NCBI RefSeq assembly: GCF_018398935.1
Contig: NZ_CP074694.1
Coordinates: forward strand, 2,520,001-2,552,000
Length of the DNA: 32,000 nt
Direction of reading: 5' to 3'
From: Telmatocola sphagniphila
Lineage (GTDB): Bacteria; Planctomycetota; Planctomycetia; Gemmatales; Gemmataceae
This document shows, one piece after another, positions 6,552 to 26,189 of the stretch; within the stretch, counting starts at the first letter, position 1, and every line of letters starts with the position of its first letter. The notes under the pieces were generated by a model. The model had not been told where the DNA came from and did not search any database. It worked only from the letters and a program-made list of their open reading frames with translations. Both the position numbers and the translations under genes were made by a program.

Positions 6552-6578
6552 CATTCATCGACTTAGGGAGTCCAACAA

Positions 6579-6800
6579 GTGCAAACCGTTACCACTACGC
6601 CGGGGAAACGCCTCGGCGACGCCAAAGAAGTCGCAAGGCTTTTGGACTGTTCATGGCGGCATGTCCTTCGAATGGCCGACGCTGGCCTTTTACCGTGGGG
6701 CTGCAAGTTAGGAACACTTCGCCGCTGGGATCTCGACGAGATTTCCAAATGGATTTCTGAAGGCTGCAAGCCGGTCCGCTCTCACAAAGGGAGGGACTAA
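6579..6800 (+). CDS. xis: Excisionase/AlpA-family HTH DNA-binding protein
   Basis: LGDAKEVARLLDCSWRHVLRMADAGLLPWGCKLGTLRRWDLDEISKWI matches the excisionase-family (MerR-like HTH_17) pattern. It is a small protein located in an integrase-bearing element. The start is GTG. Confidence 0.7.
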   Translation: MQTVTTTPGKRLGDAKEVARLLDCSWRHVLRMADAGLLPWGCKLGTLRRWDLDEISKWISEGCKPVRSHKGRD

Positions 6801-6802
6801 AA

Positions 6803-7297: not shown

Positions 7298-7302
7298 TCG
7301 CA

Positions 7303-9658: not shown

Positions 9659-10017
9659 GCAAACCCTTTGAAATCGGGGCCGAACCGCCGCCGCTGGCAT
9701 CGAAGAACCAGAGGAAGCTTACGCCAAAGAAATTTACTAAGGGCCGTTTTAACGACATAAACAGCTTCCTCGACTTTGCGGCATCGAACCTTGAACGGTC
9801 CGATTTGGTTGTTTGGCTGCTGCTCTGGCGGGATACCGGTCGCGATGGCTGCGCCCGCCCATCAACACAATATTTAGCGATGCGGGCCGGTTGTAGTCGG
9901 GAAACCGTTTCCCGGGCGATTGCTTCACTAACCTCGAAGGGATTGCTTTCGATCATACATCGTGGCGGATTGAATCGGGGGCCGAGTGTGTATCGTATTC
10001 GACCGCCCAACATGTGA
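9655..10017 (+). CDS. Winged helix-turn-helix protein (candidate replication initiator or origin-binding protein)
   Basis: The wHTH is STQYLAMRAGCSRETVSRAIASLTSKGLLSIIHRGGLNRGPSVYRI. The start shows an ATGA overlap with the helicase gene. An iteron cluster follows immediately. Confidence 0.6.
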   Translation: MSKPFEIGAEPPPLASKNQRKLTPKKFTKGRFNDINSFLDFAASNLERSDLVVWLLLWRDTGRDGCARPSTQYLAMRAGCSRETVSRAIASLTSKGLLSIIHRGGLNRGPSVYRIRPPNM

Positions 10018-10120
10018 CGCCGAGATCACAGGCGCATGTGACGCCTAGCTACGTCGCACGGTGACGTGGGGATCACATATTCCATAAAGATTCCATAAGT
10101 GACGCCCCTAAAGGGCGTCG
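10011..10120. repeat. Iteron-like cluster: GTGACG(C/T) x4, CATGTGACGCC x2, GATCACA x2, TCCATAA x2 and the hairpin GACGCCC-n5-GGGCGTC
   Basis: Read directly from the sequence.
- CATGTGACGCC at 10011-10021 and 10035-10045.
- GTGACGTGG at 10061.
- GTGACGCC at 10099-10106.
- GATCACA at 10024 and 10071.
- TCCATAA at 10081 and 10092.
- Inverted repeat at 10101-10119.
The region is non-coding and lies immediately 3' of the wHTH gene. Confidence 0.6.
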
Positions 10121-10216
10121 ATTGAAGACAAATAATTACCGGGCGAGAGGCTTTCCCTGTGGGGTAACCATTAAGCCCGAATCCAACAATCTACAAATTT
10201 GAAACAGGTAATACAA

Positions 10217-10477
10217 ATGAAGTCGAAACAACCATTGACCGAACAGAATAAGAAAAAACCGGCGAGAAAGCCTAATCAGCGTAAAGCCAAGCTCAATCCC
10301 TCTTTCGAAGAGGTATTTTGCGCCCTGATGGATTTGGACGAACTGGCCGAACCGAATCGAGGGACCGAAGTTCTAAACGCTGCTAACGAGATTGCTTACG
10401 AAATTCTGATTTCTGCGAAAACAATCTGCAAAGCGAAGCTTCGAGAGTTAGGGCGAAGTGGCATAACGAGCAAATAA
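10217..10477 (+). CDS. Small lysine-rich basic protein, hypothetical
   Basis: ATG at 10217, in frame with the track ORF starting at TTG 10199. The N-terminus is KKKPARKPNQRKAK. I recognise no domain. Confidence 0.4.
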   Translation: MKSKQPLTEQNKKKPARKPNQRKAKLNPSFEEVFCALMDLDELAEPNRGTEVLNAANEIAYEILISAKTICKAKLRELGRSGITSK

Positions 10478-10483
10478 CCCTGA

Positions 10484-10512
10484 TTGCGCGATAGGCCGAA
10501 AAGAGTTATAAT
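10484..10512 (+). promoter_or_regulatory. Sigma-70-like promoter candidate for int (TTGCGC - 17 bp - TATAAT)
   Basis: The -35-like hexamer is at 10484-10489 and a consensus -10 TATAAT is at 10507-10512. It lies ~85 bp upstream of the int ATG. The match is by eye, and planctomycete promoter consensus is poorly defined. Confidence 0.35.
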
Positions 10513-10596
10513 CCTATTACCTTCGGGGAGAACGGGCCGGCGAACTGGAAAGCGCCGCGTCCCGTTTCTCTCCCGACTTTCCAGAGGTTCAATTCA

Positions 10597-12321
10597 ATGG
10601 GATCGATACGCCGAAAACATACTTGGAAGCGAATACCGCCCGAAGCGAAAATTATTGAAGTCGATGGCAAGCGGTTCGCTACTTGGATCCAGAACGGGCG
10701 CCGCCGAAAAGAGGAAGTCCGCACGATACAATCCGGGCCGCATAAAGGCGAAGATAGAATTGTATTTATGCCAAAGACCTGGTACGCGAAATACCGCGAC
10801 GCCGAGGGATTAGTCTGTGAAGTGAATACGAACTGTAAAGACGAAATGGCTGCAAGGCGATTTCTTTCGACTCTGGAAAGAGACGCCGAACGGATTCGAA
10901 AGGGCGTTATCACTTCCGAAGAGACTCGGATCGCTGAACATTCTGGCCTAGCCATGAAATCCCACGTTTCCGACTTCGAAACTTATCTGGAAGCGAAAGA
11001 GACTACAAAAGTCTATCGGGAAAATTGCCGTAGGTATCTCGAAAGATTGGTGAAGGAATGCGAATTCGAGACCTTGAGAGATTTGAGAAGAGAACGCTTT
11101 GAAAAATGGCTCTCGCTGCAAGTTGCTGAAAAGATGTCTGCTCGAAGTCGCAACGCGCACCGCAACGCCTTAAACACTTTCTGCAATTGGGCTGTCCAGA
11201 CCGAGAGGCTAGCAAGCAATCCTTTCCGGGGAGTGTCTAAAGCGAACGAAGCCGCCGACCCGAAACGGCAACGCCGAGCAATGACCGCCGAGGAACTCGA
11301 ACGCTTGTTACTGGTGGCAAGAGAACGCCCTTTCAATGAAGTAGCACTCATCCGAAGAGGGCCGAAAAAAGGTACGCTATCAGAGAAAGTTTCGAACAAA
11401 ACCCGCGAACGCATGGAGCTACTCGGGAAAGAAAGAGCACTCATCTACAAATCACTGGTTCTGACCGGATTACGGAAGTCGGAACTGGCATCTATCAAAG
11501 TCTCTTCGCTGGATTTAGATTCTGATAACCCTACCGCCGTATTGAACGCCGCTGATGAGAAGAACCGCTCTGGTTCCGTAATTCCTATTCGAGAGGATCT
11601 AGCGGACGATTGGAGGGAATGGCTCTCTCAGAAACTGCAAATATTGCGAAAGGAATGCTTTCGAAAAGGTCAACCGGTTCCGGCTCACCTTCCGGGCGAT
11701 ACGCCTCTCTTTCGAATTCCCGGGCAAATTATTCGGATTATGGATAGAGATTTGAAAGCCGCCGGGATCTCGAAGAGGGACGACCGAGGGCGAACTATCG
11801 ACTTGCACGCCTTGCGAACTACCTTCGGGACGCTGATGAGTAAAGGCGGGGTATCACCTAGAACCGCTCAAGCCGCGATGCGGCACAGTGACATTAAGCT
11901 GACGATGGGCGTTTATACCGATCCGAGGTTGCTCGATGTCCGGGCCGCGCTCGATGTACTTCCTCGACTTGAAGTCGAAAGACCTTCTAACGAATCTCTG
12001 AGGATGACCGGGACGGAGGGTAAACCGAAAGTCGATATGAGTCAGTTCGTCCCTCAGTTCGTCCCTACTGCTGGAATTTTGGGACGAACGGGAGCAAACG
12101 TGGACAATCTTACAATGATGAGTAACCAAATGGTTGAACCGAACGAAATCGTCGTAAATGCTGAAATGTCAACGAAAAAGGGCTTGCTGCCATTCGCTGA
12201 CAACAAGCCCTCTGAATCGGACCGGGGAGATTTGAACTCCCGACCTCTTGCACCCCAAGCAAGCGCGCTAGCCAAGCTGCGCTACGGCCCGAATCCGCTC
12301 GAGAATTGCTCCCCAAACTGA
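10597..12321 (+). CDS. int: Tyrosine recombinase (phage-type integrase) with an unusually long C-terminal extension that reads through attR and antisense through tRNA-Pro
   Basis: Catalytic signature: LTGLRKSEL (Arg), HALRTTFGT (His-x-x-Arg), MRHSDIKLTMGVYTD (His...Tyr; Tyr codon at 11914-11916). No in-frame stop occurs until 12319-12321, about 135 codons after the catalytic Tyr. Confidence 0.9.
   Translation: MGSIRRKHTWKRIPPEAKIIEVDGKRFATWIQNGRRRKEEVRTIQSGPHKGEDRIVFMPKTWYAKYRDAEGLVCEVNTNCKDEMAARRFLSTLERDAERIRKGVITSEETRIAEHSGLAMKSHVSDFETYLEAKETTKVYRENCRRYLERLVKECEFETLRDLRRERFEKWLSLQVAEKMSARSRNAHRNALNTFCNWAVQTERLASNPFRGVSKANEAADPKRQRRAMTAEELERLLLVARERPFNEVALIRRGPKKGTLSEKVSNKTRERMELLGKERALIYKSLVLTGLRKSELASIKVSSLDLDSDNPTAVLNAADEKNRSGSVIPIREDLADDWREWLSQKLQILRKECFRKGQPVPAHLPGDTPLFRIPGQIIRIMDRDLKAAGISKRDDRGRTIDLHALRTTFGTLMSKGGVSPRTAQAAMRHSDIKLTMGVYTDPRLLDVRAALDVLPRLEVERPSNESLRMTGTEGKPKVDMSQFVPQFVPTAGILGRTGANVDNLTMMSNQMVEPNEIVVNAEMSTKKGLLPFADNKPSESDRGDLNSRPLAPQASALAKLRYGPNPLENCSPN
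12045..12065 (+). repeat. 21-bp repeat GTTCGTCCCTCAGTTCGTCCC, right copy (candidate arm-type site)
   Basis: Exact match to 4085-4105. It lies within the int 3' region, 87 bp before attR. Confidence 0.5.
12153..12262 (-). repeat. Proximal att repeat, overlapping the 3' part of the intact tRNA-Pro and its terminator
   Basis: 110/110 identity with 3920-4029. Confidence 0.9.
12175..12210 (-). terminator. Rho-independent terminator of tRNA-Pro
   Basis: On the minus strand: GGGCTTGTTG-(11-nt loop)-CAGCAAGCCC, a 10-bp stem with one G-U pair, followed by TTTTT. A duplicate lies at 3942-3977 as part of the att repeat. Confidence 0.7.
12217..12291 (-). tRNA. tRNA-Pro (anticodon GGG)
   Basis: Folded by hand as a cloverleaf.
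- Acceptor stem CGGGCCG/CGGTCCG (one G-U pair), discriminator A.
- D stem GCGC/GCGC.
- Anticodon stem CTTGC/GCAAG, loop TTGGGGT (anticodon GGG, G37).
- Variable loop AGGTC.
- T stem GGGAG/CTCCC, loop TTCAAAT.
It is 75 nt long and the CCA end is not encoded. Confidence 0.9.
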
Positions 12322-12392: not shown

Positions 12393-15233
12393 ATGGATAG
12401 GTTCGCGGATCTCCAAAAGCATCTTCAGAAACATACCCAGGCCGAAATTCGATTCGATAGCACCACACGACACCTCTATAGCACCGACGCCAGCATCTAT
12501 CAGGTCCCACCGCTCGGTGTAGTAATTCCCCGTACCGCCGAAGATCTCCAGAGCACTCTTCAAATCGCACTGGAACAAAAAATTCCCATAATTCCCCGGG
12601 GCGGCGGCACCAGTCTCTCCGGCCAATCGATCGGGGCCGGCCTGATAATCGATTGCTCGAAATACCTGCAACGAATTCAATTCGGCGAGTTGGACTCCCA
12701 GGGTCGGCCAACGGAGATGGTCGTCCAGCCGGGGGTAGTACTCGACGATCTGAACCGAGCCGCCGGGAAGTATCAGATGCAGTTCGGGCCGGAAGTAGCG
12801 ACCGCCAACCGGGCCACTCTAGGGGGGATGATCGGCAATAACTCTGCCGGTTCCCGATCAATAGTGTATGGCCGAACCATCGATCATGTTTTGGGACTGA
12901 AGATGATGTTTGCCGATGGCACTTTTCAGCAGATTGGAAAACTCCCGGCGGTCGCTGAACGGAACAAAAATTTTCAGAAGATTCTGACAGGCCACGAGAC
13001 CGCGATTCGCGCGGTTTTTCCCAAAATCCAAAGACGCGTCAGCGGCTACAATCTGGTCGACTGCCTGCCGGACAATTCACTACTTCCCTTACTGGTTGGC
13101 AGCGAAGGGACCCTAGGTTTCACACTGGAAGCACGGCTACGGCTGATTCCCAAGCCCAAACAAAGGGGATTGATCGTTCCGCAATTTAGTTCAATGCGTG
13201 CCGCCTTGGATGCCCTATCCCTTTGCCTGGAGTCAAAGCCGAGTGCCGTGGAGTTGATGGATGCCCTGCTCATTCAATTGGCCAAAAAACAACGCGGACT
13301 GGCGGATAGCTTCCAAGTCGTTACCGGCGACCCGGCAGCCTTGCTCATTGTCGAATTGGTTGGGGACGACGGCGCCGAAGTGGCTGATCGATCTGAAAAA
13401 TTAGAACAGCGACTTCGTTCGGTACCTGGGTTGACCGACGTCGCAAGCGTGCTGCAGAACGAGGAGCGGGAGAAACTCTGGAATGCTCGGCGCTCCGCCG
13501 TGCCCCTGCTTTACAGCATTCCCGGCAAGCGAAAGCCGATTACCTTCGTCGAAGACACCGCCGTTTCGCCCGAGGTCCTGCCGCAGTTTGCCGATGATTT
13601 CCGTGAAATCTTGAAGAGACATGGCACGGATGGGGCTTTTTACGGCCACGCCAGCGTCGGCTGTCTGCATATCCGCCCTTTGCTGGATATCCAGCGTAAT
13701 GAAGACCTGAATCGCATGACAGCGATCATGGAGGATATCACTTCTCTGGTGCGCAGCTACAAGGGTTCCTTGAGTGGCGAGCATGGCGACGGGTTGGTAC
13801 GCAGTTCCTGGAATCGCAAGATGTTCGGCGATGAGGTCTACGGGGCTTTCCAACAAGTGAAAGACCTCTTTGATCCGGGCAATCTCTTCAATCCCGGCAA
13901 GATTGTGAACGGGCCGCCGATGACGGAAAATCTTAGGTATGCGAAAGCGGAGAAGATCGAATTAATCACTGTAAAAACCCAATTCGACTATTCGAAGCAG
14001 GAAGGGTTCTTCAATTCGGTGGAACTCTGCAACGGATCGGGCGTCTGTCGAAAAACGCAGAATGGGACCATGTGCCCTTCTTATCGGGCCACCAGAGATG
14101 AGAAGGACACTCCGCGCGGCCGGGCGAACGCGCTGCGCCATGTAATGGTGGATCAGCAGCCGATCTCCGAACGCTGGGTTCATGAAGTGATGGACCTTTG
14201 TTTGAGCTGCAAGGCGTGCAAAACCGAATGCCCCAGCAATGTCGACGTTGCCAAAATGAAGGCGGAGCATCAGGCGGCCTATTACGCAATCCACTCCCGA
14301 CCCCGAAGCCATTATGCCGCCCGCTACGTCGATACCTTGAATAAGCTAGGTAGCCTACTCCCCAGCTTGTCGAACTGGCTGGGAAGCTTCTCTTTTACGC
14401 GAAGGATCGCCGGCTTTCATGCGGATCGTCCGTTACCCCGATTTGCTCGGCGGTCCTTTTTTTCCTGGTTCCGACGACGAAAAACTCCCTTGAAACCTAA
14501 AAACGGCAAGTCGATCGTTCTGTTTGCGGACTGTTTGACCTCCTATACCGAACCAGGCATCGGCCGGTCCACCGTGCAGATTCTGGAATTGCTGGGTTAC
14601 ACGGTCGAACTCTCCAGCGTGAAATGCTGCGGACGAGCCAAGATCAGCAAAGGTTTTCTTGCGGAAGCCAAAGCGGCAGTTCGAGCGGGAGCCCAAGCAT
14701 TAGCAACCCAGGCCGCGACGGCCGAGGCGATCATCGGTTGGGAACCGAGTTGCGTCGTAGCCCTGCAAGATGAATGGACGGAACTTTTGGTCTCTCCGGA
14801 AACGAAAGCAATAGCGGCAAAAACCTGGCTCATCGACGATTGGTTGGCCGTGCACCTGAAAGAGTTGCTTCCGCACTGGCCCGCCGCCGCTGAAAAGAAA
14901 TCGGTAGTCCTTCACGGACATTGCCATCAAAAAGCCATGCTGGGAACTGCTGGACCGGTGCAGGTTCTAAAAGCAATCCCAGGTTGCGAAGTGAAACTTC
15001 TGGATACCGGCTGCTGTGGCATGGCCGGGATGTTCGGCTACGAAAAAGAACATTATGAATTGAGCAAGCAGATCGCCGAGTTGTCGGTGCTACCGCAATT
15101 GCGAGATAATCCCCAGGCGACGGTCATTGCGGATGGAACTTCCTGCCGTCATCAAATCAGCGATTTGAGCCAAAGGCCTTCCATGCATCTGGTGGAATGG
15201 GTGGCCAGTAACCTGAATTTGGATTCGAAATAG
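12393..15233 (+). CDS. Fused FAD-linked oxidase / Fe-S (CCG-domain) oxidoreductase, YdiJ/GlcD-GlcF-like 2-hydroxyacid dehydrogenase
   Basis: The N-terminal part is an FAD-binding PCMH-type domain (VVIPRTAEDLQSTLQIALEQKIPIIPRGGGTSLSGQS). Two ferredoxin-like Cys clusters follow (CNGSGVCRKTQNGTMCP; CLSCKACKTECP). The C-terminus carries cysteine-rich CCG repeats (CCGRAK..., GCCGMAGMFG). Confidence 0.85.
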   Translation: MDRFADLQKHLQKHTQAEIRFDSTTRHLYSTDASIYQVPPLGVVIPRTAEDLQSTLQIALEQKIPIIPRGGGTSLSGQSIGAGLIIDCSKYLQRIQFGELDSQGRPTEMVVQPGVVLDDLNRAAGKYQMQFGPEVATANRATLGGMIGNNSAGSRSIVYGRTIDHVLGLKMMFADGTFQQIGKLPAVAERNKNFQKILTGHETAIRAVFPKIQRRVSGYNLVDCLPDNSLLPLLVGSEGTLGFTLEARLRLIPKPKQRGLIVPQFSSMRAALDALSLCLESKPSAVELMDALLIQLAKKQRGLADSFQVVTGDPAALLIVELVGDDGAEVADRSEKLEQRLRSVPGLTDVASVLQNEEREKLWNARRSAVPLLYSIPGKRKPITFVEDTAVSPEVLPQFADDFREILKRHGTDGAFYGHASVGCLHIRPLLDIQRNEDLNRMTAIMEDITSLVRSYKGSLSGEHGDGLVRSSWNRKMFGDEVYGAFQQVKDLFDPGNLFNPGKIVNGPPMTENLRYAKAEKIELITVKTQFDYSKQEGFFNSVELCNGSGVCRKTQNGTMCPSYRATRDEKDTPRGRANALRHVMVDQQPISERWVHEVMDLCLSCKACKTECPSNVDVAKMKAEHQAAYYAIHSRPRSHYAARYVDTLNKLGSLLPSLSNWLGSFSFTRRIAGFHADRPLPRFARRSFFSWFRRRKTPLKPKNGKSIVLFADCLTSYTEPGIGRSTVQILELLGYTVELSSVKCCGRAKISKGFLAEAKAAVRAGAQALATQAATAEAIIGWEPSCVVALQDEWTELLVSPETKAIAAKTWLIDDWLAVHLKELLPHWPAAAEKKSVVLHGHCHQKAMLGTAGPVQVLKAIPGCEVKLLDTGCCGMAGMFGYEKEHYELSKQIAELSVLPQLRDNPQATVIADGTSCRHQISDLSQRPSMHLVEWVASNLNLDSK

Positions 15234-16817: not shown

Positions 16818-17780
16818 TCACCCCAGGATATCGAACGATTTCAGGAACTGGCAAGCGTCCTGAGCCCCCGATTCACGGGGTATGCCTCGATCGTGATAAT
16901 CGACTGCGATTGCCCCTGTGTATTTCATTGTATTCAACTCTCGAAACAAGCTTTCCCAGTCGATACTGCCATGACCGGGAGAGCGAAACTGAAAGCCGCG
17001 TCGGGGATCACCGCTCGGAAGATAACTGTTGAGAATCCCGGCTCGCCCGTTCAGCGTCAAAATCGCGTCCTTGGCATGGACGTGGTAGATGCGTGTGGGG
17101 AAAGCTCGCAGAAATTCCAAGGGCTCGACTCCCTGCCAGTGCAGATGGCTGGGATCGAAGGTGAAACCGAATTCCTCGCTCCCATGCACGGCATCCAGAA
17201 CCATTTCCGCCGAGTAAAGATCGAACGCCATCTGCCCGGGATGCACTTCGAAGGCGAATTTGACCCCGGTTTCCCGGCAGGCTTCGAGTATTGGACGAAA
17301 GTTCTTGCCAAAATCCTTGAAGGCCTGGCTGATGAGCTTTTCGGGAGCAGCGGGGTAACCTGCAACGTAAGACCAAATCGGCGAACCGGTGAAACCCGAG
17401 ACGACGGCCACACCGAGCTTTTGAGCCAGATGAATTGTGGCGACCATTTCCTCGATGGCTCGTTTTCGAACACCTTCCGGCTTACCATCGCCCCAGATAA
17501 CCTCGGGCAGCAAAGCTTTATGGCGTTCGTCGATCAAATCGCAGATCGCCTGACTGACTTTGTGATTGCTGACTACGCCGATTCGCAGATCATAACGGCT
17601 CAGGGTTTCTCGAATTTGCGATAGGTAGCTGGAGTCGCTGGAGGCCCGGCCCACATCAATAAATCCGGGATAGCAGGTCAATTCAAATCCGGCATATCCC
17701 CATTGGCTGGCTTTGGCCGAGAGCTCTTCCAGAGCGAGATCGGTCCAGCCGTTCGTGAACAGTAGAATTTGTTGAGGCAT
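16818..17780 (-). CDS. Sugar phosphate isomerase/epimerase (xylose isomerase-like TIM barrel)
   Basis: Family pattern: GYAGFEL..., FAFEVHPGQMAFD, IYHVHAKDA. The start is set at MPQQILLFTNGW (complement of 17778-17780) rather than the longer track ORF that extends to 17831. Confidence 0.8.
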   Translation of the reverse strand: MPQQILLFTNGWTDLALEELSAKASQWGYAGFELTCYPGFIDVGRASSDSSYLSQIRETLSRYDLRIGVVSNHKVSQAICDLIDERHKALLPEVIWGDGKPEGVRKRAIEEMVATIHLAQKLGVAVVSGFTGSPIWSYVAGYPAAPEKLISQAFKDFGKNFRPILEACRETGVKFAFEVHPGQMAFDLYSAEMVLDAVHGSEEFGFTFDPSHLHWQGVEPLEFLRAFPTRIYHVHAKDAILTLNGRAGILNSYLPSGDPRRGFQFRSPGHGSIDWESLFRELNTMKYTGAIAVDYHDRGIPRESGAQDACQFLKSFDILG

Positions 17781-17874
17781 GCTCGACGCTCGCCACTCCG
17801 TGGCTCGTGAGGATCTGAAAACTCGGTCCACAAATGACAGAGATCGGCTGATTCGCCGATCTCCGCAAGTTCAA

Positions 17875-19518
17875 TTAAACACTCGGCTTAGGATCTGTCG
17901 AACTGGTTGGCGGCGGATCGATCGGCTTAATATCGCTCGGCGGCACGGCTCGCAAGGTCGGCGGATCGACCATCTGAACCACCGGAGCCGAATTCACGGC
18001 TTCGGGAGCCGGAGTCGGAGAAGGAGGAGGCACCTTAGCCCCTTGCGGTTCGAAATCGGCATCGTCGATGTGGATTTCATCGATCTCCGTTTCATCGACC
18101 TTCTTCCGCATCAGCAGGTAAATCATTGAACTGGCCGTCCAGAAGTAACTGTAGCTGAAACCGAGCATGAGCATGAAGACGGCGGTCAACCAGAAGGAAA
18201 CCATTCCAGCGCCGGCAATGTTGTACCAGGTGTATTCCTTCAGATATTCTTCCGCGGCAGTCTTGTGAACGTAGACATCGTTGTAAGTTTCCAACGGGGT
18301 TCCTTCGAGCAGCAACTGCCGCCAGCCGAAAGATGTCGGAGCGTAAGTGTACAGATACTGCGGTTCGCGATTGGTAGTCTGAGTCAGGATTGTCTGGCTC
18401 ACCCCCCAGTTAGCGAGATATACAGTCAAAGAAGTAACCACAACCACGAAGAATACCAGCACTGCCCCGTAGAGAATCGAAATGATGGAGTACCAGAGGT
18501 AGCTCCAGGGCGATTCATAAACGTAGTTGTAGGACCGACTGAGCGCATCGAAGGTGTCGCTTCCTTCGGCACTCAGAGTCGTGTACATCAGCGGGTACCC
18601 AACAAGGCCCAACACAATCAGGGCCATGATGAAGCCGGCGCCGAGGGGAATCAACCATCCCAGGCCATCGATCAGAATATCGCCGATGCCCGGAATCAAA
18701 TGGAACAGGCCGAAGACCATGCAACCAATGACAATGGCGAACAGGCCGGCGATGGGAACCACCGGAGAGCTCACATAAGAAATATAGTGTTTGCGAACGA
18801 AATCGATGGCGCCTCTCAATCCACCAGTTTCCTTCCCGGCGAGCGTGCTAATGGCCATTCGGGTGATAATTCCGCCGAAGAAAGCCCAGATGGCCAGTTC
18901 AACCAAAAGCAGCACGACCAGGTAGAGCCGAGTCCAGGTATTGGCCTGGGCGTCGAATAGATAGCTCACCGGGGTCAAAAACTTCAAGAGCGGTTCGACT
19001 AGTACGAAAACCTGTCCCTGAAGGAATCGGCCGATGGTTTCGTTGCGCTCATTCGGGCTGCCGGTGACGGTATTCTTCAGCATGGAGACCGGATTGGGTC
19101 CGCGATCCTCGAACCAGGGCATGATTCGGTATTTACCGCCTTTGATTGTGTGCTTGACTCCATCTACCGTTTCGTATTCTTCGATAGCTGTGGAACCAGC
19201 CAGTTTGTACTGCAGTTTCCAGGAGTTTAGCCGACGAGAGTAGTCGTCGTTACGCTTCTTAATCGCTTCCTCATCGGTCACGCCGTCCTTCTGATAGGAC
19301 TTCGGATCGAAATCGGTGAGTTTCGGCTTGGCTACAAAGAAGAAGTTGTTGAAGAACAACGAAATGATTAACCAAGCCAGGGCGGTGGTTAAAATACCGA
19401 CTGCGGCAACAATCAGTTTAAAAGGATCGAGTGCGACGAGAAAAGTTCTAAACAAGCGGAGCCACGGAAATGTCTTGAGCCAATCGATTTCACGGGTCGC
19501 CAAGCGCTCGTCGGCCAT
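17875..19518 (-). CDS. Polytopic membrane protein of unknown function with an acidic then proline-rich C-terminal tail
   Basis: This 547-aa ORF has many hydrophobic helices. The C-terminus reads DETEIDEIHIDDADFEPQGAKVPPPSPTPAPE...DPPPTSSTDPKPSV. I recognise no catalytic motif. Confidence 0.75.
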   Translation of the reverse strand: MADERLATREIDWLKTFPWLRLFRTFLVALDPFKLIVAAVGILTTALAWLIISLFFNNFFFVAKPKLTDFDPKSYQKDGVTDEEAIKKRNDDYSRRLNSWKLQYKLAGSTAIEEYETVDGVKHTIKGGKYRIMPWFEDRGPNPVSMLKNTVTGSPNERNETIGRFLQGQVFVLVEPLLKFLTPVSYLFDAQANTWTRLYLVVLLLVELAIWAFFGGIITRMAISTLAGKETGGLRGAIDFVRKHYISYVSSPVVPIAGLFAIVIGCMVFGLFHLIPGIGDILIDGLGWLIPLGAGFIMALIVLGLVGYPLMYTTLSAEGSDTFDALSRSYNYVYESPWSYLWYSIISILYGAVLVFFVVVVTSLTVYLANWGVSQTILTQTTNREPQYLYTYAPTSFGWRQLLLEGTPLETYNDVYVHKTAAEEYLKEYTWYNIAGAGMVSFWLTAVFMLMLGFSYSYFWTASSMIYLLMRKKVDETEIDEIHIDDADFEPQGAKVPPPSPTPAPEAVNSAPVVQMVDPPTLRAVPPSDIKPIDPPPTSSTDPKPSV

Positions 19519-19700: not shown

Positions 19701-20927
19701 CTAGAAAGAAATACCCACGCCGATTTCGATACCTTGTGTCATCCGGAAGGCTTTGTGGGTGTATCCGGGTTCGATGTCCCCGAAGTTCCAGCCGATCGGA
19801 TCGGTCATCTGATAGGTATTGAAGTACATCAGAGCGTTATAGCTCGCCCGGACGGATACCCCTTTGATGGGATACCACCAGAAGCTGGGCTTGAGCCCGA
19901 CGTTAGGTACCACGCTGTACTGATCGAACTTGTTCTTGCTCTGCGTGCCGGATGCCCGGTCTTCCCTCTCGTAGTCGGCGGAAGCCCGTGCGAAGTCGAG
20001 CATCAAAGCCGCCGTGGCATCCAACGACAGAGCGAAGTTATTCCCCAGATAGACTTCGTTGCCGCAACCCAAGAAGGCACCGAACATTCGCTGCTTCAAG
20101 GTGTTATTGTAATTAGCGGCATCCGTACCATCGGAGTTCCCGTTCACGTCGGTGGCAACTGTGAACCAGTTAAACCGTTCCGAAATCTGTGAATATCGGA
20201 AACCCATCAGAGCATAGGTCCGCGAATAGTCCGTTTCCATTACAGGAGCGCGACCGGTGATATCCAGGTTCGAAAAGTGCTGGATGAAACTGATCGTTTC
20301 ATACGTCGCCCCGTTCCAGATACCGTAAAGCCGCCCCGTGATGGGAAACGGCGAGAACTCTTGAGAAAACTGATCGTCGAAGGTTCGGATCTTCGGACCA
20401 CTGTAATAGTTCGTGAAGTTGTAAACGCCTGAGTACAGGTAGGTATTCTGGTTCAGGTTTCCCGGATTGGAAATATTCCCAGGACCGCTTGCCCCCGCCG
20501 TGTACTTGGCGTCCACCAGATCCATATAACTCAGCGAAATGGCAAATCCACTTTCGAACTTATAACCCAAGGTAATTTCGTACCCGGGTTGATAGGTCGA
20601 ACGGCCCAGTTGTCCGGTGGTCAGTGCGATCGCCCCACTGCCGACGAAGGTCCCAGGTGTTCCCGAGAAAGCACCGATGCTATCTCGGAAGCCATAAACC
20701 GCCACGACCTGATTTCCCAGCGGCCTCGTCTGGGACATGAAAGCCACTTCGATGGCTCCGTAGAAGCCTCCCGAACTCGCTTTATCCGGACCGATCGGTA
20801 ACGGCACTGGATTCGCCGGTATCCCCGAAAAGTCGTAATTATTCGTTTGCTGCGCTTTCGACGAAGTAACGCCCACGAAAAGGACGCTAGCCAGGACGAG
20901 AGCCTTGCTCATCCAACGGTATCGCAT
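19701..20927 (-). CDS. Outer-membrane beta-barrel (porin-like) protein
   Basis: The signal peptide is MSKALVLASVLFVGVTSSKAQQ. The body is aromatic/Gly-rich with an alternating pattern, and the C-terminus ends ...GIEIGVGISF (terminal Phe, the typical OMP beta-signal). It may belong to planctomycetal porin families such as BBP7, but that is unverified. The start is 20927 or 20912. Confidence 0.7.
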   Translation of the reverse strand: MRYRWMSKALVLASVLFVGVTSSKAQQTNNYDFSGIPANPVPLPIGPDKASSGGFYGAIEVAFMSQTRPLGNQVVAVYGFRDSIGAFSGTPGTFVGSGAIALTTGQLGRSTYQPGYEITLGYKFESGFAISLSYMDLVDAKYTAGASGPGNISNPGNLNQNTYLYSGVYNFTNYYSGPKIRTFDDQFSQEFSPFPITGRLYGIWNGATYETISFIQHFSNLDITGRAPVMETDYSRTYALMGFRYSQISERFNWFTVATDVNGNSDGTDAANYNNTLKQRMFGAFLGCGNEVYLGNNFALSLDATAALMLDFARASADYEREDRASGTQSKNKFDQYSVVPNVGLKPSFWWYPIKGVSVRASYNALMYFNTYQMTDPIGWNFGDIEPGYTHKAFRMTQGIEIGVGISF

Positions 20928-21291
20928 AAGCCATAACCCCCTTACAAACTGCCGGAAAATCAGCGACTCGCAATCCCCCTGATCGAGTCGTCTGCTGCAC
21001 CGACAGATGGCTATTTCAACCGGTATGCGCATTTGTGGAATGCACGCACCGGGAAATCAATGCCCGCGTTACATAACTCTATTCGGTATTCCGTCAACGC
21101 CAGATTTGCCAAAAATGCGGGCTCCGGTGGCAAATACTCATTTTTTTTCGACGGATTTCTTAAAGATGGGTAGGATAACCTTTGCGAGTCAAGAATTGGG
21201 TTTTGAGTGATTTGCCTGAAAGTAGGATTTTTTACAAATGAACTGGCCCCATGGTGAGTTTTATCATTGACGAATGAGTGCGTAGCGTTCA

Positions 21292-21336: not shown

Positions 21337-22167
21337 ATGCCATTTTCGTGCCGGTATTGCCTACTTTGCTCCGTAGTTGCTCTCGGGGCCGTTTCCATCG
21401 TTCCTATGACCTTGATGAAAGCTCAAAGTTATGGGCCGAATGTCTCGATCACCCGCCCCCGGCCGAACCTCCCCATCAGTCTCTTACCCCCGGCTCCCTC
21501 ATTCGCCCCACCCAGCCGACAACTAAATCCCGTAAATACTTTGTTCGGTAGCACCAGCGGTGGTACCAGCGGTACCAGCGGCACGACGGGTACGAGTGGA
21601 ACTAGCGGTAATAACAACGGCACCTCAGGTACCAGTGGCAGTTTCAGCGGGAACAATGGGGGCAATAACGGTACCAGTGGGGGTATCAGCGGTAGCATCA
21701 GTGGGGGCAATTCCGGTAGCATTAGTGGAGGCGTCTCGGGTGGCGTCAGCGGTGGAGTTAGTGGCGGCATTGGCGGTGGTGGTTCCACATCCGGCGGCGG
21801 CGGCTTGAGCGCGTTCGGCTTCGGTTCCCAGGGGGGTTACAATCTCCCCCAGGGCGGCGTGACTCCTCCCGGTGTTATGCCCAACACCATGATCGGCTAC
21901 ATCGGTGGCTCAGGCGGCGGTAACTTCGGTGGCGGCTTCCAGGGCTTCTCCGGAACCTCGGGTACCCAAGGCGGCGGTATCCAGGGGGTACAGGGACAAG
22001 GGGGCGGCATTCAAGGAGGCCAAGGGGGATTTGGTGGTGGAATCGGCGGAGGTATTGGTGGTGGAATCGGCGGAGGTATTGGTGGTGGGATCGGCGGAGG
22101 TATCGGTGGCATCGGTGGTGGGATCGGCGGCGGCAAAATCGGATTCGCCGGCACAATGGGTCAATAA
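21337..22167 (+). CDS. Secreted glycine-rich repeat protein, paralog 1
   Basis: Domain order along the protein:
- Signal peptide (MPFSCRYCLLCSVVALGAVSIVPMTLMKAQS).
- Conserved Pro/Arg N-box (RPRPNLPISLLPPAPSFAPPSRQLNPVNTLFG).
- Gly/Ser/Thr/Asn repeats.
- Conserved core (GGLSAFGFGSQGGYNLPQGGVTPPGVMPNTMIGYIGGSGGGNFGGGFQGFSGTSGTQGGGIQGVQG).
- (GGGI)n repeats, ending GGGKIGFAGTMGQ.
A terminator follows the gene. Confidence 0.8.
   Translation: MPFSCRYCLLCSVVALGAVSIVPMTLMKAQSYGPNVSITRPRPNLPISLLPPAPSFAPPSRQLNPVNTLFGSTSGGTSGTSGTTGTSGTSGNNNGTSGTSGSFSGNNGGNNGTSGGISGSISGGNSGSISGGVSGGVSGGVSGGIGGGGSTSGGGGLSAFGFGSQGGYNLPQGGVTPPGVMPNTMIGYIGGSGGGNFGGGFQGFSGTSGTQGGGIQGVQGQGGGIQGGQGGFGGGIGGGIGGGIGGGIGGGIGGGIGGIGGGIGGGKIGFAGTMGQ
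22033..22104 (+). repeat. 24-bp tandem repeat x3 (GGTGGTGGAATCGGCGGAGGTATT) encoding GGGIGGGI
   Basis: Units 22033-22056 and 22057-22080 are identical. Unit 22081-22104 differs at 2 positions. Confidence 0.9.
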
Positions 22168-22207
22168 ACCTGTTTTCGCAGCCTCTACAATCTAAAGTTC
22201 AACCCAA

Positions 22208-22232
22208 CGAGCCGGTTTCGGCTCGTTTTTTT
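22208..22232 (+). terminator. Rho-independent terminator after glycine-rich paralog 1
   Basis: CGAGCCG-GTTT-CGGCTCG followed by TTTTTTT. Confidence 0.75.
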
Positions 22233-22629
22233 GCGCACCCATTCAACAGCGAAGCTCGCATTTTATTTGCCGCTGCCCACTTCAGCTAGGAATCGAAAGA
22301 TATAAACCGCTCCACCCTGGTGCGACCGCGTCATTCTAAGACAGCATTTATCTTTACAAGGCTCATTCTGATCACGCAAACGCATCAGTCGAACCCCTAA
22401 CATGTGGGTCCATTTTCAACCGAAATGCTGTGAATTCGGCTACTCGCACCCTAGGCTCCACCCTTTTTCGGCAAAAAACAATTCTGCTGTAAGATCGGTC
22501 ATGATAAATTGAATTTTAAGATAATTGGTTTTTCTTAAAACCAAATCAAATTTTGGGGCGTTTATTTATTGGAAACTCGCCCTTGCTCTTTTACGAAACC
22601 ACCTGGGAAATCGAACAGGAAATCCAACC

Positions 22630-23391
22630 ATGCGAAAAATTCTGGTTTACTCGTTGCTTCTTTTGGGCTTAGCCAGCCTCTACCCCATGACTTACATGGC
22701 CGCCCAGGGCAATTTTGGGCCCCCCGTCACGGTCACTCGACCCCGACCGAATGTTCCCATTAACCTCCTGCCGCCCCGACCAACCGCGCCGCCCCCTTCC
22801 CGACCGCTGAACCCAGTGAATACTCTTTTCGGCAACAGCACTGGCACCTCGGGCAACAGCAATACGGGAAATAGCGGTAGCACCTCGGGCGGCGTCAGTG
22901 GGGGCATTTCGGGGGGCATTAGTGGAGGGATCAGTGGGGGAATTAGCGGAGGGATCAGCGGCGGCATTTCCGGGGGGATCAGCGGAAGCATCAGTGGTGG
23001 TATTTCCGGGGGAATTAGTGGAGGCATCGGCGGATCTACCGGCGGAACTTCTGGGGGCCTCAGCGCTTTCGGCTTCGGAGTCCAAGGCGGCTATAACCTC
23101 CCCTCCGGAAGCCTGACTCCGCCGGGAGTGATGCCAAACACTATGATCGGCTACATCGGCGGAGCCGGGGGAGGCAACTTTGGTGGGGGCTTCCAGGGTT
23201 TCTCGGGAACCTCGGGCATTCAAGGCGGCGGGGTCCAGGGAGTTCAGGGATTTAGCGGCGGTGGGATTAGTGGAGGAATCGGCGGTGTTGGTGGAGGGGC
23301 CGGATCCGTCGGGGGTTTTGGAGCCATCGGTGGTGTGGGAGGCGGTATTGGCGGCGGAAAAGTGGGATTTGCCGGAACGATGGGCAATTAG
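22630..23391 (+). CDS. Secreted glycine-rich repeat protein, paralog 2
   Basis: The start is set at MRKILVYSLLLLGLASLYPMTYMAAQG; the track ORF begins earlier, at 22525. The architecture matches paralog 1, with 12 consecutive SGG(I/V) tetrapeptides. Confidence 0.8.
   Translation: MRKILVYSLLLLGLASLYPMTYMAAQGNFGPPVTVTRPRPNVPINLLPPRPTAPPPSRPLNPVNTLFGNSTGTSGNSNTGNSGSTSGGVSGGISGGISGGISGGISGGISGGISGGISGSISGGISGGISGGIGGSTGGTSGGLSAFGFGVQGGYNLPSGSLTPPGVMPNTMIGYIGGAGGGNFGGGFQGFSGTSGIQGGGVQGVQGFSGGGISGGIGGVGGGAGSVGGFGAIGGVGGGIGGGKVGFAGTMGN
22885..23028 (+). repeat. Protein-level tandem repeat: 12 x S-G-G/S-I/V tetrapeptide encoded by heterogeneous codons
   Basis: Codon-by-codon reading gives Ser = tcg, agt, tcg, agt, agt, agc, agc, tcc, agc, agt, tcc, agt. 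Gly uses ggc, ggg, gga and ggt. Ile uses att and atc. Confidence 0.9.
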
Positions 23392-23803
23392 TGATCCCTA
23401 TACCGTCTTGGGAGCAAAACCTTTCATCAGGTATTGCTCCCAATTCATCTTCTTCAGCGCGACAAACTTTTACTCAACGGCGCTTCGCACACATTTCCCT
23501 ACAATAATTATCAGGACAGAAATAGAATTCAACAATTTAAAATTAAGTAATCTTAAACTATTTCTCGGCCAAATTAAGTACCATTCATCTTTTTCCGTTC
23601 TAGAAAAAAATCGATTATTCCTCGACAATTCCGCCCAAAACGCGCAAATCCAAAAATTCGATAGCTCACATTTACTAATGAATTAAAATTTGACAGATTT
23701 TGAAAAATCCGCAATCATATTGTCCTGACTTTACGTTATTATAAAGTACTGACAGCAATTTTCGTAATCCCATTAGATGCTTATTCAGATTCGTGGAGGA
23801 AGC

Positions 23804-24634
23804 ATGCAGAGGCAAATTAAACGGACTCTATGGGGCGCTGTGATCGCGCTCTCCGCGATATCGGTAATTCCCGTATCGCTCATTACTGCTCAATCCGGAA
23901 GTTTCGGTCCGAACGTGTCGCTCGGCCGACCGCGACCGAACATCCCCATCAGCTTGTTACCGCCGGCACCGGCTTTTGCCCCGCCCTCGCGACAGCTGAA
24001 CCCCGTAAATACGATTTTCGGAAATACTACCGGTACCAGCGGTGGCACATCGGGAACAACCGGAAACAATAACGGCACCACCGGTAATAACAACGGCGGG
24101 ACCAGCGGAAGCTTTAGCGGAAACAATGGAGGCAACAGTGGTATCAGTGGAAATACCAGTGGTGGAATTTCCGGCAACATAAGTGGAGGTATCTCCGGTA
24201 GCGTCAGCGGTGGAATCTCCGGCGGTATCAGTGGCGGAATTTCTGGCGGCATCAGCGGTAGCATCGGCGGTGGCGGGTCCACATCCGGCGGCGGGGGCTT
24301 GAATGCCTTCGGCTTTGGAGTGCAGGGTGGCTATAACCTCCCCCAAGGCGGAGTGACCCCTCCCGGTGTCATGCCTAACACCATGATCGGCTATATTGGT
24401 GGCTCGGGCGGCGGCAACTTCGGTGGCGGTTTCCAAGGCTTCGCCGGAACTGCCGGCACTCAAGGCGGCGGTATACAAGGCGTACAGGGTATAAGCGGAG
24501 GTCAAGGTGGCATCCAAGGCGGGATTGGTGGCTTCGGCGGCGGGGTTGTCGGGGGCATCGGTGGCGGTATTGGCGGCGGTATCGGAGGCATCGGCGGTGG
24601 AAAGATTGGCTTCGCCGGCACCTTGGGACAATAG
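23804..24634 (+). CDS. Secreted glycine-rich repeat protein, paralog 3
   Basis: The start is set at MQRQIKRTLWGAVIALSAISVIPVSLITAQS, with GGAGGA 4 nt upstream. The architecture matches paralogs 1 and 2, and a terminator follows. Confidence 0.8.
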   Translation: MQRQIKRTLWGAVIALSAISVIPVSLITAQSGSFGPNVSLGRPRPNIPISLLPPAPAFAPPSRQLNPVNTIFGNTTGTSGGTSGTTGNNNGTTGNNNGGTSGSFSGNNGGNSGISGNTSGGISGNISGGISGSVSGGISGGISGGISGGISGSIGGGGSTSGGGGLNAFGFGVQGGYNLPQGGVTPPGVMPNTMIGYIGGSGGGNFGGGFQGFAGTAGTQGGGIQGVQGISGGQGGIQGGIGGFGGGVVGGIGGGIGGGIGGIGGGKIGFAGTLGQ

Positions 24635-24660
24635 CGTTCCTCAAAATTGCCGATAGACTA

Positions 24661-24690
24661 AGCGAGCGGTCCCATACCGCTCGCTTTTTT
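24661..24690 (+). terminator. Rho-independent terminator after glycine-rich paralog 3
   Basis: AGCGAGCGG-TCCCATA-CCGCTCGCT followed by TTTTTT. Confidence 0.75.
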
Positions 24691-24710
24691 ATTTGTGGAA
24701 GACAAATAGC

Positions 24711-26189
24711 ATGTTTAATCCCTTCAGCCTTCTATTTCTGGCCCTTCTCCCTGGCGATGCCAACTTCCAAAAATCGGATTTACACGACTTCACCCAACGC
24801 ATCGTTCCCGGTTTCCTGGAGAACTGGCAAGTCCCGGGCTGCGTGGTCGTGATCGTACGCAAGGCCGAAGATCCACTGATCCTGCCGTTTGGAATTCGGC
24901 AAGTCGGCCACCCGGAAAAGGTGACCCCGGATACCTTGTTTCCTCTGGCCTCCTGTACCAAAGCTTTCACTTCGTTTCTCATCGGTACGGCGGTTCAAGA
25001 AGACAAGATGCTCTGGGACGATCCCGTCCGGAAGCTGCTTCCGGATTTTCAACTCTCCGATCCTAACGCCTCCCAGTTGGTTTCTCTACGCGATTTGCTC
25101 TCCCATCGCACAGGCGTTGGCTCACACGATTTCCTCTGGTATCGCGCCCCGTGGGGAATGTCGGAAGCAATTAAGAAGGCTTGTCGGTTGCCTCTGGAGA
25201 AACCTTTTCGAGGCGCGATGCAGTACCAGACAGTGATGTATATGGCGGCGGGCCAGGCTTTGGAAAAAGCAACGGCTACTCCCTGGAAGCAACTCTTCGA
25301 GCAGAAAATTGCCAGCCCGCTGGGTATGAAACAGCTGCAGTTTACGACGGTCGACTATTTGAAAAGCAAAGATCACGCCGCCGGCCATCGTCGCGATTTG
25401 CAATTGAAGACGATTTCAGTTCCAGAATACGATCTGAAAGAACCGAACCCCGCCGGTTCGCTTTACTTGTCGGGAAACGACTTGAGCAAGTGGTTGCAGC
25501 TTCTGCTGAATGGAGGAAAATTCCAAGAGAAGACTCTGCTCGAATCCAAGATCTTCAACGAACTATTTCAACCGCAAATCGCCATACCGATGGACGAATC
25601 GGCCCGGCGCTTCAATCCGGAAACTCGACTTACCAGTTACGGATTGGGCTGGATCGTTCAGGATTATCGGGGCCGGCTCTTGATTTCGCATGGCGGTATC
25701 ATCGATGGCTATCGTTCGCACCTGACGATCCTGCCCGAGGAGGGGCTGGCGATCGGAGTTCTGGCGAATTTCCACGCCTCCCGCATGAATATCGCACTTT
25801 GCAATCAATTGATCGATCACTATTTGAAACTCGAAACCACAGATTGGAATGCTTACTATCGCAAGTTAATGGATGAGAATGTTGAGGCCGAGATGCTCGC
25901 GGAACAGAAACGGGATCAGAATCGGCTGAAGTTTACGGTTTCCTCGATCCCTCAGGGGCAATTTGCAGGCCAATACGAGAACCCCGCCTATGGAGAAATT
26001 TCCGTCACTTTCAAAGACAATCAACTGCTTTGGGAATGGGGCAGTTTTCACTGCCCTCTCCAGCATTTCGAACACAATCGGTATCGGATTGTCGAAGGGT
26101 TGTTAGCCGGAATGTTCGTGGATTTTAAAGTGAGGAATGGAAAGGTAACCGGAATGGAGACATTCGAGTTACCTTTCGCCCGCAAATAA
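24711..26189 (+). CDS. Serine hydrolase of the beta-lactamase/transpeptidase-like family (class C/esterase-like)
   Basis: The SxxK active-site motif is present (LASCTKAFTS) in an N-terminal beta-lactamase-like domain, and the N-terminus looks like a signal peptide (MFNPFSLLFLALLPG). ATG at 24711 is preferred over the track start at 24693. Confidence 0.8.
   Translation: MFNPFSLLFLALLPGDANFQKSDLHDFTQRIVPGFLENWQVPGCVVVIVRKAEDPLILPFGIRQVGHPEKVTPDTLFPLASCTKAFTSFLIGTAVQEDKMLWDDPVRKLLPDFQLSDPNASQLVSLRDLLSHRTGVGSHDFLWYRAPWGMSEAIKKACRLPLEKPFRGAMQYQTVMYMAAGQALEKATATPWKQLFEQKIASPLGMKQLQFTTVDYLKSKDHAAGHRRDLQLKTISVPEYDLKEPNPAGSLYLSGNDLSKWLQLLLNGGKFQEKTLLESKIFNELFQPQIAIPMDESARRFNPETRLTSYGLGWIVQDYRGRLLISHGGIIDGYRSHLTILPEEGLAIGVLANFHASRMNIALCNQLIDHYLKLETTDWNAYYRKLMDENVEAEMLAEQKRDQNRLKFTVSSIPQGQFAGQYENPAYGEISVTFKDNQLLWEWGSFHCPLQHFEHNRYRIVEGLLAGMFVDFKVRNGKVTGMETFELPFARK

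Follow-up and report, generated by a model that had tools for sequence, protein, structure and literature searches.

What are three tandem genes for extremely glycine-rich proteins that resemble no known family, and do they have relatives in other genomes? This question is raised by a 32,000-nucleotide stretch of the Telmatocola sphagniphila genome (contig NZ_CP074694.1, positions 2,520,001 to 2,552,000), which is called the window here and whose own numbering is used for all coordinates. The three genes for glycine-rich proteins (GRPs), p1, p2 and p3, lie between a porin gene and the gene for an S12-family serine hydrolase. It was found that p1-p3 are real genes, old paralogues held by purifying selection, and that genes of similar architecture occupy the same slot in 25 further distinct loci. 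I read p1-p3 as paralogues, tripled in the window genome, of an unannotated family restricted to Gemmataceae-like Planctomycetota, whose products may form an exported, disordered, cohesive gel- or rubber-like envelope material. Taken jointly, family and material make a tentative reading, which I favour and place a little below the probable.

Three old paralogues in tandem

An open reading frame (ORF) check at the coordinates of the initial annotation, a note made from the DNA sequence alone, gave ATG as the start codon of p1, p2 and p3. The same locus is held by the Logan assembly of run SRR14506984 (contig L001), in which independent gene calls gave 253 amino acids for p2 and 276 for p3. The genes and their parts are as follows.

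21337..22167, plus strand: GRP paralogue 1 (p1), 276 amino acids (ORF, translation, composition)
22630..23391, plus strand: GRP paralogue 2 (p2), 253 amino acids (ORF, translation, composition)
23804..24634, plus strand: GRP paralogue 3 (p3), 276 amino acids (ORF, translation, composition)
p1, residues ~1-29: signal peptide, probable cleavage ...MKA↓QSYG (judged by eye)
p2, residues ~1-25: signal peptide, probable cleavage ...MAA↓QGNF (judged by eye)
p3, residues ~1-29: signal peptide, probable cleavage ...ITA↓QSGS (judged by eye)
21751..21995, plus strand: conserved non-repeat core of p1 (direct-repeat family D4, 70-82% DNA identity)
23005-23249 and 24245-24489, plus strand: equivalents of the core in p2 and p3 (the same repeat family and identity)
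22135..22164, plus strand: C-terminal signature decapeptide K-I-G-F-A-G-T-M-G-Q of p1, with the sole mature Lys at -10
23359-23388 and 24602-24631, plus strand: equivalents of the decapeptide in p2 and p3, with the sole mature Lys at -10
22206..22237, plus strand: intrinsic-terminator-like hairpin and U-tract after p1 (-19.3 kcal/mol, z -3.3)
23408..23443, plus strand: stable hairpin with a weak U-tract after p2 (-21.5 kcal/mol, z -4.0; missed by a terminator consensus scan)
24660..24696, plus strand: terminator-like hairpin between p3 and the hydrolase gene (terminator scan and folding)

The initial annotation had described three co-directional genes with a shared five-part architecture, and the ORFs, the starts and the alignment of the three proteins, in which the five-part layout is seen, bear this out. 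The other two paralogues are 81% and 71% identical to p3, and the range across the three is 71-81%. Gly makes up 34-36% of the whole proteins and 37-40% of the mature parts. As had been claimed, Asp, Glu, Cys, His and Trp are absent from the mature parts, which have three to four Arg and exactly one Lys; the hydrophobic residues Ile, Leu, Val, Met and Phe account for 19-23%, Asp plus Glu for 0%, and Lys plus Arg for 1.6-2.2%. The N-termini are Sec-type in form, in agreement with the predicted signal peptides, but the signal-peptidase site is probably (A/G)↓Q, one residue before the ..AQ(S/G) end that had been proposed. All three proteins fit a strict tail motif, G-K-Φ-G-F-x-G-x-x-G-x, where Φ is a hydrophobic residue. 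The tail (KIGFAGTLGQ) has ten residues, directly follows the Gly repeats and has no transmembrane segment.

Among p1-p3, the ratio of nonsynonymous to synonymous substitution rates (dN/dS, by the Nei-Gojobori method) is 0.036-0.058 in the core, with a dS of 1.0-2.2, and 0.085-0.14 over the whole genes. The low dN/dS together with the saturated dS means that the plus frame is coding and that p1-p3 are old duplicates under purifying selection, as had been proposed. The long antisense ORFs at p1-p3 are by-products of periodic sequence. The GGGI tract of p1 (22031-22109) is made of a 24-nt unit repeated 3.3 times with 96% identity. Since the core is synonymously saturated, this high identity means that the repeat number of p1 is still changing while the core is ancient, which indicates a recent intragenic repeat expansion or homogenisation.

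Are p1-p3 transcribed together? The spacers between p1 and p2 and between p2 and p3 measure 462 and 412 bp, in line with the 400-460 bp that had been noted. Terminators had been reported after p1 and p3, and hairpins were found there; p2 also has a stable hairpin, with a poorer U-tract. A hairpin comparable to that of p3 also lies 3′ of the GRP gene in a metagenome-assembled genome (MAG) named Fimbriiglobus sp. The ribosome-binding site is AGGAG ahead of p1 and of the GGAGG/AGGAG type ahead of p3, and that of p2 is weaker. Alignment of the three upstream regions gave no convincing shared promoter. Given the 3′ hairpins and the AT-rich spacers, separate transcription units are plausible.

Relatives in the same chromosomal slot

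The initial annotation had suggested a survey of synteny with the neighbouring porin gene. This synteny is real, and it was the key to finding relatives. The slot is defined by two anchors.

19701..21032, minus strand: porin-like outer-membrane protein (Legionella_OMP/BBP7-like; Pfam), the upstream anchor
24711..26189, plus strand: exported S12-family serine hydrolase (Beta-lactamase fold and DUF3471; Pfam, E 8e-53), the downstream anchor

In the window, the porin gene is divergent and lies 304 bp upstream of p1, while 77 bp separate the p3 stop codon from the hydrolase start. The loci compared (numbered with the prefix L) were the contigs of hydrolase homologues and 80 more loci from a metagenome scan seeded with the hydrolase alignment. 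In 28 loci, the window included, an acid-free Gly-rich gene lies on the hydrolase strand upstream of the hydrolase gene. The 27 further loci, which have a single such gene, mostly with 40-55% Gly, amount to 25 distinct ones, as the pairs L007/L008 and L009/L010 carry identical sequence. Both anchors are visible in nine of the 28 loci, and the other 19 are contigs that start inside or just upstream of the gene. The distance from the GRP stop codon to the hydrolase start is mostly 55-160 bp, with outliers at 1 bp (L081) and 632 bp (L029), so that the 77 bp behind p3 are typical. The positional orthologues can be listed in one line.

L004, L007, L010, L014, L070, L075, L079 and L084, hydrolase strand: same architecture, plus the 19 contigs that start at the gene

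The clearest case is L004, a 2.2-Mb contig with a single gene of 281 amino acids between porin and hydrolase. Its product starts with a signal peptide and a Gly run, followed by a Pro/Arg box (FFRPGMPQPPMYRPRSP) and (GGIGG)n repeats; after a non-repeat centre (GGIISFGGFGGNISLPPQIPGGYLGMSGG) come GGGFQG repeats and the end GGGKIGFNGGYGI. A gene end ...GGGKPGFSGNPAL lies upstream of the hydrolase in the MAG named Fimbriiglobus sp. (GCA_035539575.1) and in a JGI contig that matches it (L093). Among the loci examined, more than one GRP copy was found in the window genome alone, which has three.

Is such a composition common elsewhere in these contigs? An ORF counted as ultra-Gly if 80 consecutive residues reached 40% Gly or more and no more than one residue was acidic. 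When both strands of 761 kb were scanned, 27 of 27 such ORFs were found to sit directly upstream of the hydrolase gene.

The slot can also be empty. At 21 loci the porin gene directly adjoins the hydrolase gene with a gap of 230-590 bp and no GRP gene, and the gene is not present at the examined Gemmata sp. locus and at two Gemmataceae MAG loci. In the neighbour-joining tree of the hydrolase, GRP-positive loci are spread across several clades, and one large clade is without the gene. An old gene with losses would fit this tree, which is a rough guide, better than a recent invention.

Many contigs start inside the Gly-rich gene: L001 (in p1), L009, L020, L025, L028, L029, L031, L034, L037, L046, L049, L051, L053, L055, L057, L058, L087 and L092/L093. 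The repeats evidently break short-read assemblies, and the family is under-represented and truncated in databases.

Some slots hold other proteins. L006:9300-9839 and L081:5419-5910 encode divergent slot proteins that are Asn/Phe/Gly-rich with lower Gly and carry the repeats GFNPVGMNIN and GFNGQWGGPNN. Both are acid-free and signal-peptide-bearing, and their C-tail is altered or absent. With 17% Gly, the L006 protein misses a criterion of at least 35% Gly and was treated as a divergent variant. In the related loci L026 and L027 (L027:5134-5874, minus strand), the slot holds an unrelated acidic protein of 246 amino acids on the opposite strand. The slot between porin and hydrolase seems permissive for gene insertion.

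Conserved and variable parts

The features common across the lineages are the slot, a Sec-type N-terminus ending (A/G)↓Q, and a Pro/Arg-rich box shortly after it. Typical members have 37-54% Gly and 0-2 acidic residues, (G3-4Φ)n tracts, a short non-repeat centre and the tail K-Φ-G-F-x-G-x-x-G-Φ. Of the 31 C-termini (29 distinct sequences), 26 have their last Lys at -10 (18) or -11 (8), and this Lys is the only mature one in many members, including all three window proteins. The residue at Φ differs by lineage: Ile/Val in the window and L004, Leu in L031 and L079, Met in L007, L070 and L087, and Phe or Gln-Phe in L014, L029, L046, L055, L075 and L084. Since Φ is interchangeable while the Gly content and the lack of charge are kept, selection acts on composition in the repeats; such a pattern would be expected if composition, rather than a fold, is what is selected. 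At the termini and the centre, selection was shown to act on sequence.

These conserved features are not the ones first taken as family markers. The initial annotation had relied on an N-terminal box (RPRPN...LNPVNT) and a 65-residue core. In alignments with the relatives, neither of them scores higher than reversed-sequence controls. Outside this lineage both escape detection, and the slot, the architecture, the composition and the Lys decapeptide are conserved instead. It had also been stated that a core confined to this genome would suggest fast-evolving junk ORFs. The core is indeed undetectable outside the lineage, but junk is excluded by the dN/dS values and the 25 further distinct loci.

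A common ancestor of window and slot proteins would thus be supported by position, architecture and the terminal motif rather than by alignment statistics. Could unrelated proteins have convergently occupied a permissive intergenic site? The shared Lys(-10) tail makes this unlikely.

Searches by sequence

The claim that p1-p3 have no recognisable family stands, since the Pfam, NCBIfam and PDB searches came back empty: no family was found in Pfam and NCBIfam at E of 1 or below, and no PDB sequence at E of 10 or below, for p1, p2 or p3. Against Pfam, the eight positional orthologues gave no match except one at chance level (E 0.09). Full-length p3 against 5.8e9 clusters gave one spurious match over 11% of the query, and the candidates were swamped by G-rich words. 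A HMMER profile of the three paralogues, run against 1.84e9 cluster representatives, gave 15 matches but none to the N-terminal box or the core; all 15 were in the SGGIS low-complexity block and, on inspection, were unrelated proteins with SGGIS, SGELS or TGNVT repeats. A chimeric profile of the N-terminal box, core and C-tail found nothing in 5.8 billion clusters. Scans with back-translated motifs (TPPGVMPN, TMIGYIGG, NPVNT[LI]FG and AFGFG[VS]QG) revealed no relatives in GTDB genomes and JGI metagenomes. As a control, leave-one-out hidden Markov models (HMMs) scored the omitted paralogue at E 1e-64 to 1e-100 for a database size of 1.8e9. Thus, the searches could detect close relatives, and none is present in the databases searched. 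The null results show that the composition correction of HMMER hides the family; they are not proof that it is confined to this genome.

Several identities were considered and rejected. A chlamydial Pmp or autotransporter was rejected on the lack of a PF02415, PF07548 or PF03797 match and of a C-terminal beta-barrel, and a sorting-signal protein of the PEP-CTERM or GlyGly-CTERM type on the lack of an NCBIfam match and of a transmembrane segment in the tail. For curli CsgA, there is no PF07012 match, and the gene context consists of a porin, an S12 hydrolase and a PVC (Planctomycetes-Verrucomicrobia-Chlamydiae)-type heme protein. A plant glycine-rich cell-wall protein (PF07172) was rejected for want of a Pfam match. 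As for a class II microcin or Gly-rich bacteriocin, the N-terminus is Sec-type, and exporter and immunity genes were not found in the 32-kb window. Met-rich copper binding, suggested by the relatives with GMGG, was set aside as a function of the whole family, since other lineages have Ile, Leu or Phe in place of Met. By these tests, p1-p3 and their slot relatives appear to belong to no curated family. A literature search on glycine-rich proteins in Planctomycetes/Planctomycetota or Gemmata found no relevant paper, and the Gemmata pore paper has no discussion of phenylalanine-glycine (FG) repeats or glycine-rich proteins.

A possible envelope material

What might the slot proteins do? The initial annotation had thought of a fibre, matrix or hydrogel protein, and a structural, gel-type role is still the best reading of the composition and gene context. 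The protein would be exported by Sec and cleaved before Gln, and the mature chain would stay intrinsically disordered. Hydrophobic side chains, carried at regular intervals by a flexible polyglycine backbone without charge, could then let the chains self-associate, and a cohesive material like a gel or rubber would form at the outer membrane or in the periplasm. The cationic N-terminal box and the Lys-bearing C-tail may serve as points of anchoring, cross-linking or targeting, and triplication may provide a higher dosage or three variants. The neighbourhood is suggestive of the envelope, with a porin and a hydrolase that has an apparent signal peptide. AlphaFold2, given the three-sequence alignment, predicted a signal helix and nothing else, at a mean pLDDT (predicted local distance difference test) of 40. 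The mature protein is probably largely disordered, for which a pLDDT from so shallow an alignment is weak support. By composition only, p1-p3 fit a class of charge-depleted, cohesive, low-complexity proteins, a functional and not a homologous grouping.

Several points weigh against this reading of family and material. Smith-Waterman scores of window proteins against slot proteins exceed those of reversed sequences by a modest margin (for example 402 vs 356 and 305 vs 222), and the paralogue HMM (A1) gives the slot relatives no score even with all filters off. The window porin shares the A↓Q cleavage context (KAQ↓Q) with the Gly-rich proteins, so that the conserved Gln at +1 may be characteristic of the lineage and not of the family in particular. 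The low pLDDT would also be compatible with a beta-solenoid or amyloid-like fold. Finally, the 21 loci with porin and hydrolase but no GRP gene mean that the family is dispensable for both, and that the linkage may be historical and not functional.

The position of the gene might instead mean that the GRP is a substrate or partner of the S12 hydrolase, which would trim its tail or, by acyl-enzyme transpeptidation, join it, for instance at Lys(-10), to peptidoglycan or to another copy of itself. I consider this quite unlikely, though it does not conflict with a structural role, to which it would contribute the cross-linking step. Every GRP gene is on the same strand upstream of the hydrolase gene, at 55-160 bp except in L081 and L029. 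The catalytic Ser and Lys of the SxxK motif are kept in an enzyme of the D-stereospecific/DD-peptidase-like S12 group (Pab87, ClbP, D-amino-acid amidase, alkaline D-peptidase and Flp), a group that often tolerates achiral Gly at D-residue positions, and the GRP offers a single conserved Lys at a fixed distance from the C-terminus. However, the hydrolase is found without a GRP at the same 21 loci, and more of its orthologues are in unrelated contexts; thus, the enzyme must have another substrate. A terminator-like hairpin also divides the two genes in the window and in the MAG named Fimbriiglobus sp., and the protein ends in I, L, Q or N, a usual L-amino acid that does not mimic D-Ala-D-Ala. 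The other neighbour suggests a porin accessory, which might plug the pore, tether it in the periplasm or form a selective mesh in or under it. It would be a bacterial analogue of the FG or YG (tyrosine-glycine) phases of nuclear and peroxisomal pores, and its tail, with alternating hydrophobic residues, would dock by beta-strand augmentation. The divergent order of porin and GRP genes is kept in all loci with both sides visible, the composition matches that of Nup98 FG domains, and several relatives have literal GFGQ, GGFQG or QGGFGG repeats. The PEX13 YG phase is a precedent for selective phases of Gly and aromatic residues (PMC9795577). Against these stand the adjacent porin and hydrolase genes of the GRP-less loci, a tail without a final aromatic residue that by inspection is unlike the bacterial beta-signal, and the Ile/Ser-rich rather than Phe-rich window proteins. 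An accessory role is very unlikely.

It is extremely improbable that the GRP is a secreted antimicrobial or bacteriocin-like protein comparable to the Gly-rich uncharged microcins or the Gly-rich peptides of arthropods. Predicted export, Gly-richness, a weakly cationic nature with hydrophobic residues, and fast-evolving, lineage-specific repeats would suit such a protein. Yet the signal is Sec-type and not a double-glycine leader, immunity, ABC-exporter and modification genes were not found nearby, 220-290 amino acids is large for the class, and the chromosomal slot is stable among envelope housekeeping genes across deep lineages. That p1-p3 are non-functional or spurious ORFs of a G-rich repeat tract is effectively refuted. 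The low-complexity sequence, the long antisense ORFs and the lack of homologues in sequence searches could be taken that way, but the core has a dN/dS of ~0.04 at saturated dS, all three copies have retained their signal peptide, ribosome-binding site and 3′ hairpin, and the positional orthologues in the 25 further distinct loci share the conserved terminal motif.

Neighbouring genes and the rest of the window

The porin scored 25.3 bits against PF05150 (E 8.9e-6), just missing the gathering cut-off of 25.4, and matched PF07585 at E 3.4e-3. Its orthologues, with 32-45% identity, flank the slot in about 40 loci. The listed porin ORF begins 36-41 codons ahead of a typical signal peptide (MSKALVLASVLFVGVTSSKAQ, followed by Q after cleavage), and the true start is probably an internal Met.

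Inspection of the translations suggests that the hydrolase has a signal peptide. Across 31 hydrolase orthologues, the Ser and Lys of SxxK do not vary, and the solved proteins closest to the enzyme are IS11, Flp, Pab87, ClbP, D-amino-acid amidase and alkaline D-peptidase. The closest homologue has 99% identity (same population, JGI 3300042090) and the next at most 47%. From this gap, the source organism has no closely related sequenced genome among those searched. The sources name the hydrolase homologues Gemmataceae, Fimbriiglobus, Urbifossiella, Gemmata and Isosphaera, and the sole match of a GTDB scan with the hydrolase was a Bacteroidota locus at 30% identity, so that the lineage lacks a close species representative there. 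The window also encodes a PVC-type heme-binding protein. This protein, the BBP7-like porin and the names Gemmataceae, Fimbriiglobus and Isosphaera among the hydrolase relatives agree with the planctomycetal context that had been suspected.

Beside the porin, two more genes belong to a conserved block.

16818-17831, minus strand: AP_endonuc_2 protein
17875-19518, minus strand: DUF7847-like protein of 547 amino acids

On the contigs of hydrolase homologues, the block consists of the AP_endonuc_2 gene, the gene for the DUF7847-like protein of ~550 amino acids and the porin gene, all on the minus strand, followed by the hydrolase gene on the plus strand. This envelope-looking block recurs with or without the Gly-rich gene in L004, L006, L013, L016, L023, L027, L038, L063, L081 and L091.

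Farther away, positions 5100-12320 have a GC content of 0.45-0.47 compared with ~0.52-0.55 elsewhere and encode a DUF669 protein, a primase-small-subunit-like protein and a DnaB-like helicase. The end of a tyrosine integrase gene (10597-12321) abuts or overlaps a tRNA-Pro(GGG) gene (12216-12292, minus strand). This region is a probable integrated mobile element. Beside the tRNA-Pro gene, positions 12393-15233 encode a large fusion of FAD (flavin adenine dinucleotide)-linked oxidase, 4Fe-4S dicluster and CCG domains, which appears to be an ordinary glycolate-oxidase/lactate-dehydrogenase-like protein.

Significance and comparison with known systems

In the Gemmata group of planctomycetes, the envelope is unusually plastic and invaginated, on a material basis that is poorly understood. 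If the favoured reading of an envelope material is true, the slot protein, as an abundant exported protein chemically like a rubber or an FG hydrogel, would be a concrete candidate component, and this class of biomaterial would be extended to bacteria. A bolder and unlikely version is that the family is the first bacterial counterpart of FG/YG phases and abductin rubbers, a Sec-exported, charge-free protein that makes a gel or elastomer in the enlarged, deformable periplasm or in or under an outer-membrane pore, maybe cross-linked through its one conserved Lys by the PBP-like hydrolase. If the protein is inert, the finding shrinks to a lineage-specific hypothetical protein. In either case, a family present in at least 26 distinct loci was recovered by synteny only, while HMMER searches of 1.8 and 5.8 billion proteins were empty. 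Low-complexity secreted proteins may be a blind spot of current annotation, and similar families may be systematically missed.

Among known exported repeat proteins, curli CsgA and other functional amyloids are also Sec-exported, rich in Gly, Asn, Gln and Ser, and form extracellular material, as is presumed for the window proteins. The latter, however, have no Curlin repeat match and no csgEFG-like genes nearby, and have far higher Gly and a repeat of period 4. The chlamydial Pmps, with GGA[ILV] and FxxN repeats, share repeated Gly-Gly-x-aliphatic tetrapeptides, export and the PVC superphylum, but are autotransporters of 900-1800 amino acids with a C-terminal beta-barrel, whereas the window proteins have ~250 amino acids and no barrel. 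In plant class I glycine-rich cell-wall proteins (PF07172), a signal peptide is likewise followed by Gly-X repeats, (GGX)n in plants, and an extracellular structural role is presumed. The plant proteins are cross-linked through Tyr and do not share the conserved termini and gene context of the slot family.

Cohesive Nup98 FG domains have 13-17% Phe, Ile, Leu, Val and Met, 0-0.5% Asp plus Glu and 0.1-2.3% Lys plus Arg, and phase-separate spontaneously (PMC4283134). The Nup98-type FG domains and the PEX13 YG domain resemble the window proteins in Asp plus Glu of ~0%, Lys plus Arg of ~2%, 13-23% hydrophobic residues, and disorder, which is predicted for the window proteins. Some slot relatives have GFGQ or GGFQG repeats like the Trypanosoma Nup158 motif (PMC4283134). 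The likeness is one of composition only: FG domains are eukaryotic, cytosolic, anchored to the pore scaffold and lower in Gly, and Phe is essential to them, while the hydrophobic residue of the slot family is interchangeable and Sec export is predicted.

Abductin, the elastomer of the hinge ligament of scallops and other molluscs, has the repeat GGFGGMGGGX and is regarded as a random-coil rubber (PMC13052691). No homology to the slot family can be detected in this animal protein, which is without the Pro/Arg box or the K-Φ-G-F tail, and the window proteins, which use Ile/Val and Ser and not Met/Phe, can be likened to it by composition only. Like them, it is secreted, very Gly-rich and low in charge, with hydrophobic residues (Met and Phe) regularly spaced between Gly runs, and the Met/Phe-type relatives L007, L049, L070 and L079 nearly reproduce its repeat chemistry.

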